From Escherichia coli (lineage in GTDB: Bacteria > Pseudomonadota > Gammaproteobacteria > Enterobacterales > Enterobacteriaceae): a stretch of DNA of 64,000 nt. The notes below the pieces were generated by a model. It had not been told where the DNA came from. It saw nothing but the letters and a program-made list of their open reading frames with translations, and made no database searches. The position numbers and the translations under genes are program-made. The stretch is from NCBI RefSeq assembly GCF_002854065.1, contig NZ_CP024147.1. One strand, given 5' to 3'. Every line of letters starts with the position of its first letter. Position 1 is the stretch's first letter. This document shows, piece by piece, positions 32,934-33,913 of the stretch.

Positions 32934-33913
32934 ATGAATATGGAAGAAATTGTGGCCCTTAGTGTAAAGCATAACGTCTCGGATCTACACCTGTGCAGCG
33001 CCTGGCCCGCACGATGGCGCATTCGCGGGCTAATGGAAGCTGCGCCGTTTGATGCGCCGGACGTCGAAGAGCTACTGCGGGAGTGGCTGGATGACGATCA
33101 GCGGGCAATATTGCTGGAGAATGGTCAGCTGGATTTTGCCGTGTCGCTGACGGAAAACCAGCGATTGCGTGGCAGTGCGTTCGCGCAACGGCAAGGTATT
33201 TCTCTGGCGTTACGGCTGTTACCTTCGCACTGCCCGCAGCTCGAACAGCTTGGCGCACCACCGGTATTGCCGGAATTACTCAAGAGCGAGAATGGCCTGA
33301 TTCTGGTGACGGGGCGACGGGGAGTGGAAAATCTACCACGCTGGCGGCGATGGTTGGTTATCTCAATCAACATGCTGATGCGCATATTCTGACGCTGGAA
33401 GATCCTGTTGAATATCTCTATGCCAGCCAGCGATGTTTGATCCAGCAGCGGGAAATCGGTTTGCATTGTATGACGTTCGCATCGGGATTGCGGGCCGCAT
33501 TGCGGGAAGATCCTGATGTGATTTTGCTCGGAGAGCTGCGTGACAGCGAGACAATCCGTCTGGCGCTGACGGCGGCAGAAACCGGGCATCTGGTGCTGGC
33601 AACCTTACATACACGTGGTGCCGCGCAGGTAGTTGAGCGACTTGTGGATTCATTTCCAGCGCAGGAAAAAGATCCCGTGCGTAATCAACTGGCAGGTAGT
33701 TTACGGGCAGTGCTGTCACAAAAGCTGGAAGTGGATAAACAGGAAGGACGCGTGGCGCTGTTTGAATTACTGATTAATACACCCGCGGTGGGGAATTTGA
33801 TTCGCGAAGGGAAAACCCACCAGTTACCGCATGTTATTCAAACTGGGCAACAGGTGGGGATGATAACGTTTCAGCAGAGTTATCAGCAGCGGGTGGGGGA
33901 AGGGCGTTTGTGA
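32934..33913 (+). pseudogene. yggR: PilT-like ATPase YggR, frameshifted in the Walker A box
   Basis: Two overlapping ORFs (32859-33392 and 33350-33913); expected LVTGATGSGKSTT reads LVTGRRGVENLP because a G run near 33320 is one base short. Confidence 0.8.

Follow-up and report, generated by a model that had tools for sequence, protein, structure and literature searches.

Does the broken reading frame of yggR in this part of the Escherichia coli genome mark the genuine loss of a pilus retraction ATPase, or does it record a base missed in sequencing? The gene lies on the plus strand of the window (the whole stretch of DNA that was analysed, 64,000 nucleotides long) within the gene order yggU, yggT, yggS, yggR, ruvX, yqgE, gshB, and runs from an ATG at 32934 to a TGA at 33911–33913, which gives it 980 nt as against 981 nt in intact alleles. 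This 980-nt stretch matches yggR in 5,424 of 5,426 complete E. coli genomes, with identities of 90–99.9%. The features on which the question turns are the following:

32934..33913, plus strand: yggR pseudogene (PilT-family type IVa pilus retraction ATPase), from genome matches, TIGR01420, PDB 3jvu and the RefSeq label 'frameshifted' in the two closest genomes
33311..33314, plus strand: run of four Gs (G4), the site of the 1-nt deletion, from alignments with intact alleles, which have five Gs (G5) there
32934..33392, plus strand: upstream open reading frame (ORF) of 152 aa, comprising native residues 1–127 (N-terminal domain) and 25 out-of-frame residues, followed by TGA, from the ORF listing and translation
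33311..33337, plus strand: Walker A codons G127 A128 T129 G130 S131 G132 K133 S134 T135 in the downstream frame, from frame analysis and the alignment with PilT
33350..33913, plus strand: downstream ORF of 187 aa (residues 140–326), lacking Walker A, from the ORF listing, Pfam and the alignment with PilT

To place the lesion, we aligned the window with the intact GF3-3 allele, the nearest one with G5, which differs from the window at 9 further sites besides the deletion. The alignment contains one gap only, and this gap falls within the G run, where GF3-3 reads GACGGGGGC and the window GAC-GGGGC. In intact alleles the five Gs form part of ACG GGG GCG, encoding T126 G127 A128, the opening residues of the P-loop; in the window, the string ACGGGGCGACGGGGAGTGGAAAATCT was located at 33309–33334. 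The single gap thus places the deletion in the codons of G127 and A128, confirming the original prediction that the yggR frameshift sits in the Walker A P-loop. Insertion of one G yields an unbroken 326-aa protein with a Walker A motif, GATGSGKS, at residues 127–134, while the ORF listing gives two plus-strand ORFs in the yggR stretch, overlapping by 43 nt. These two results agree with the further claims that the sequence has one G fewer than is needed to encode GATGSGKST, and that the gene is split into two overlapping ORFs.

The G-restored translation leaves little ambiguity about the family to which the protein belongs. It scored 466.2 bits against TIGR01420, the NCBIfam model of the PilT/PilU family, above the curated cutoff of 319.1 bits, a match obtained only after one G had been restored, and it scored 170 bits on the Pfam T2SSE profile. 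Against Pseudomonas aeruginosa PilT (PDB 3jvu), the repaired protein aligned across residues 1–324 with an E-value of 1.4e-82, its Walker A sequence GATGSGKST lying opposite GPTGSGKST of PilT. PilT-family hexameric motors require the Walker A lysine for ATP binding.

We then considered what the broken gene could still encode. The 127 native residues of the upstream product end in ...LILVTG and are followed by the 25-aa out-of-frame tail RRGVENLPRWRRWLVISINMLMRIF; this 152-aa product returned no Pfam match. The downstream frame is open from the stop at 33092, the nearest one upstream, and offers its first start, the ATG at 33350 (M140), only after GATGSGKSTTLAA. As no start codon lies between these two positions, the Walker A codons remain untranslated in either product, and a frame analysis of yggR found the Walker A pattern GxxGxGK[ST] in neither of the two translatable products. 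The downstream ORF retains Walker B (DVILLGELRD), the His box region (TGHLVLATLHT) and AVGNLIRE, each of which aligns with a PilT motif (AVGNLIRE with the AIRNLIRE-like motif of PilT), and the Pfam T2SSE match of the 187-aa product is limited to profile positions 163–277, the second half of the ATPase domain.

According to this arrangement, translation from the native start would read 127 native residues, shift frame at the first P-loop glycine and terminate 25 codons further on, and the sole start in the downstream frame, M140, would lie past the Walker A lysine. No translatable product would then unite the N-terminal domain with a complete nucleotide-binding site, from which we infer inactivation of the PilT-like retraction ATPase, with probable loss both of ATPase activity and of any YggR-dependent pilus retraction. 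The position of the Walker A codons outside both products likewise supports the proposal, made in the original prediction, that the ATPase would be inactivated at its catalytic core. One could still imagine a split gene, in which the 152-aa N-terminal and 187-aa C-terminal pieces reassemble or serve separately, since gene callers report both ORFs and the overlap between them could permit translational coupling. We give such an arrangement next to no weight, as Walker A is missing from both pieces, its codons lying upstream of the first start of the downstream ORF, as the downstream piece offers the second half of the T2SSE ATPase domain only, and as nearly all other E. coli lack the split.

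All of this presupposes that the deletion is real. G runs are classic sites of under-calling, and the second explanation offered in the original prediction was of this kind: a G5 homopolymer recorded as G4 through a sequencing or assembly artefact, which would conceal a yggR gene that is really intact. To weigh it, we compared the site with other genomes. Among the complete genomes, just two reach an identity of 99% or more with yggR of the window, namely strain 100416 (NZ_CM128593.1, from human stool, Gambia) and strain CUWW06 (NZ_CP182139.1, from wastewater, Thailand). Both have G4 with the gap at the identical position, and in both the gene measures 980 nt and is labelled 'frameshifted' by RefSeq. 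The comparison with yggR of other strains thus showed the same G4 in 100416 and CUWW06, and G5 in GF3-3.

Three more assemblies of the lineage carry G4. The draft GCA_035821435.1 shows 100% identity with the window over 6,564 bases, G4 included; the Logan assembly of run ERR3970133, which an independent pipeline built from publicly available reads, is 100% identical over 3,641 bases, again with G4, although this run could be the read set of the window's own isolate; and the draft GCA_030199105.1 has G4 and a single mismatch to the window across 4,459 bases. Together with the window, 100416 and CUWW06, G4 was thus present in six of six lineage sequences. The products of the broken gene have been deposited as well: the exact 152-aa product, including its out-of-frame tail, has the accessions CAM6249948.1 and STH37362.1 and occurs on 42 contigs, in 111 index blocks, and the window-specific 187-aa product is found on three contigs, including those of GCA_035821435.1 and Logan ERR3970133.

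Across the 980 bases, yggR of the window differs from that of 100416 and CUWW06 by a single base, a C to T change at 33630 (A233V, nonsynonymous). This change lies downstream of the frameshift and is shared with GCA_035821435.1 and ERR3970133; being one change, it is too few for a test of relaxed selection.

The quality of the surrounding sequence also speaks against an under-call. Over the ~35 kb in which the window could be aligned with 100416, we counted ~10 substitutions and no homopolymer indels, the sole gap being at an island junction beside tRNA-Phe. Furthermore, where the annotated 100416 region (~70 kb) aligns to the yggR stretch of the window, no gene other than yggR is flagged as 'frameshifted'.

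Some observations do favour an artefact. In a search with a 65-nt query round the site, G4 also turned up in the complete genomes of CUPF12 and isolate 30859_5#32, where yggR is again annotated 'frameshifted'. Here the short run appears sporadically, as a miscall might, in genomes unrelated to the window; moreover, the accession number of CUPF12 is near that of CUWW06 and both come from the same country, so that the two possibly belong to one project. Among the 30 rows listed in that search, however, G4 was found in four, and two of these four are the window's nearest relatives. Random under-calling would not single out the nearest relatives and recur in an assembly from an independent read set, which makes a miscall very unlikely, and since independent assemblies of the lineage carry the same deletion, the lesion is best regarded as inherited and not as a sequencing error. 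With G4 in five other lineage assemblies and no differences in homopolymer length from 100416 over ~35 kb, the poly-G miscall appears effectively excluded on sequence grounds, and we consider it very improbable that yggR is really intact here. A genuine, vertically inherited G5 to G4 deletion that inactivates yggR, most likely originating from replication slippage, is in our judgement highly probable.

The wider layout of the window bears on whether the relatives are separate isolates. The elements concerned are:

1556–2323: IS1 copy
8651–9418: IS1 copy, 100% identical to, and inverted with respect to, the copy at 44509–45276
44509–45276: IS1 copy, 100% identical to, and inverted with respect to, the copy at 8651–9418
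~9419–17480: genomic island at tRNA-Phe, decayed, with the remains of type VI secretion genes
~17480–17560: tRNA-Phe
12717–13213: tssB (type VI secretion sheath small subunit), with a G run at ~12781–12787

yggR lies in a 35-kb segment flanked by the IS1 copies at 8651–9418 and 44509–45276. Judging by the positions and strands of its separate matches to CUWW06, this segment appears to be inverted relative to that strain, and the segment 2324–8650 is inverted relative to 100416. Queries that include an IS1 copy matched at least 39–40 places in each of these two relatives. Together with the inversions, this indicates that IS1 has mediated rearrangements in a lineage rich in the element. The IS1 copies and inversions had raised the suspicion of a Shigella origin, but the nearest relatives are deposited as E. 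coli. Because the IS1-bounded rearrangements differ among them, 100416, CUWW06 and the window represent distinct isolates.

Gene decay in the window extends to the island at tRNA-Phe, in which tssB is frameshifted, tssC and tssK are intact and DotU/TssL is truncated, and which also holds part of a JetD (Wadjet) gene and a TcfC-like gene that IS1 interrupts. Compared to the intact allele of strain TB06052, tssB has suffered a G8 to G7 frameshift. As tssB is also 'frameshifted' in both CUWW06 and 100416, this lesion too is inherited and not a miscall, and it may be the other poly-G case to which the original prediction alluded. Separately, REP/BIME-like intergenic repeats were noted at 33954–34051, downstream of yggR, and at 29410–29608, the copies being 96% alike.

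A real frameshift need not silence a gene, and we next asked whether this one might be bypassed or reversible. The lesion lies in a homopolymer, and a −1 slip would for that reason restore wild-type YggR: a −1 shift on G4 would give exactly LVTGATGSGKST, the wild-type protein. Such a bypass could come about by tRNA-Gly slipping back one base on ACG GGG C, or by transcriptional slippage, or else the run could serve as a phase-variable switch of retraction. In a broader form of this proposal, the P-loop G run would be a recurrent, reversible switch or a low-level −1 slippage site, with which lineages toggle or attenuate type IV pilus retraction. In its favour, the change from G5 to G4 has arisen in at least three yggR backgrounds ~30 SNPs apart, and further frameshift alleles are concentrated in this same part of the P-loop. 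Contingency tracts known so far, however, usually have 7 nt or more, and the tract in question is merely G5 in intact alleles and G4 here, short of that length. No X XXY YYZ slippery heptamer was detected at 33306–33317, and the 86 nt of RNA downstream gave a fold no stronger than that of shuffled sequence (z = 0.12). The reading frame is intact in nearly all other genomes, all six lineage sequences have G4, and we saw no G5 revertants among these six, so that ON and OFF tract lengths were not both found. Taken together, we assign only a slight chance to a frameshift that is real but bypassed or phase-variable, and the idea of a switch or slippage site used across lineages seems to us equally doubtful. 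A programmed −1 frameshift as a designed feature was considered in its own right and rejected, there being no heptamer, an unremarkable downstream fold and orthologues that are in frame.

Recurrence of the deletion outside the lineage can be read more simply than as a switch. The yggR genes of CUPF12 and 30859_5#32 differ at ~30–34 positions from the window and from each other (counting the gap column), and one of the two encodes the deposited variant P0011. In the protein cluster of the 152-aa product, other truncations occur within or just after the P-loop, at differing positions (P0014, P0002, P0015, P0008). Some of these sporadic yggR frameshifts may be errors. Since the same loss of one G from G5 is seen in two unrelated yggR backgrounds besides this lineage, the sequence comparisons suggest that the G-rich P-loop codons of yggR form a minor recurrent frameshift hotspot.

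Such lesions are nevertheless rare. In a spread sample of the ranked genome matches, 57 of 59 full-length rows had the normal length of 981 nt, showing that yggR is normally maintained. The presence of full-length yggR in nearly all E. coli suggests that the gene has some selective value and that its loss is not obviously neutral; within this IS1-rich, gene-decaying lineage, we would nonetheless expect the fate of yggR to have been neutral or nearly so.

Returning to the inherited deletion as the preferred reading, its consequences are modest. In this lineage yggR should be kept as a pseudogene, and its frameshift should not be 'corrected' as if it were an assembly error. If the lineage uses E. 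coli type IV pili (PpdD/HCP), these would be pili without a dedicated retraction motor. Otherwise, the lesion makes yggR one more decayed gene of a small E. coli lineage that is rich in IS1, and has little import beyond annotation. The gene is an ordinary lineage-specific pseudogene, and one already known, in that public annotation records the frameshift in its closest relatives.

The locus can finally be set against three known systems. Compared to yggR of NZ_CM128593.1 and NZ_CP182139.1, the gene has the same 1-G deletion, but the window is set apart from both by A233V and by a different IS1-bounded layout of the surrounding segment. With regard to the PilT–PilU family, yggR has been described as the E. 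coli PilT orthologue, in strains that lack a predicted PilU (bioRxiv 10.1101/2021.10.23.465551). The window shares with E. coli YggR the locus yggS-yggR-ruvX, and its repaired protein aligns end to end with PilT; unlike in functional members of the family, however, the frame is broken at G127/A128 and no product contains the P-loop. Lastly, a lineage-specific disruption of yggR has been reported for Salmonella enterica serovar Saintpaul lineage IB, where a SNP introduces a premature stop that shortens the gene from 981 to 153 bp (PMC8731237). As in the window's lineage, yggR is inactivated there in the whole lineage and intact in sister lineages (PMC8731237), although the two cases concern different species and differ in their cause, which is a stop codon created by a SNP in Saintpaul and a homopolymer frameshift here.
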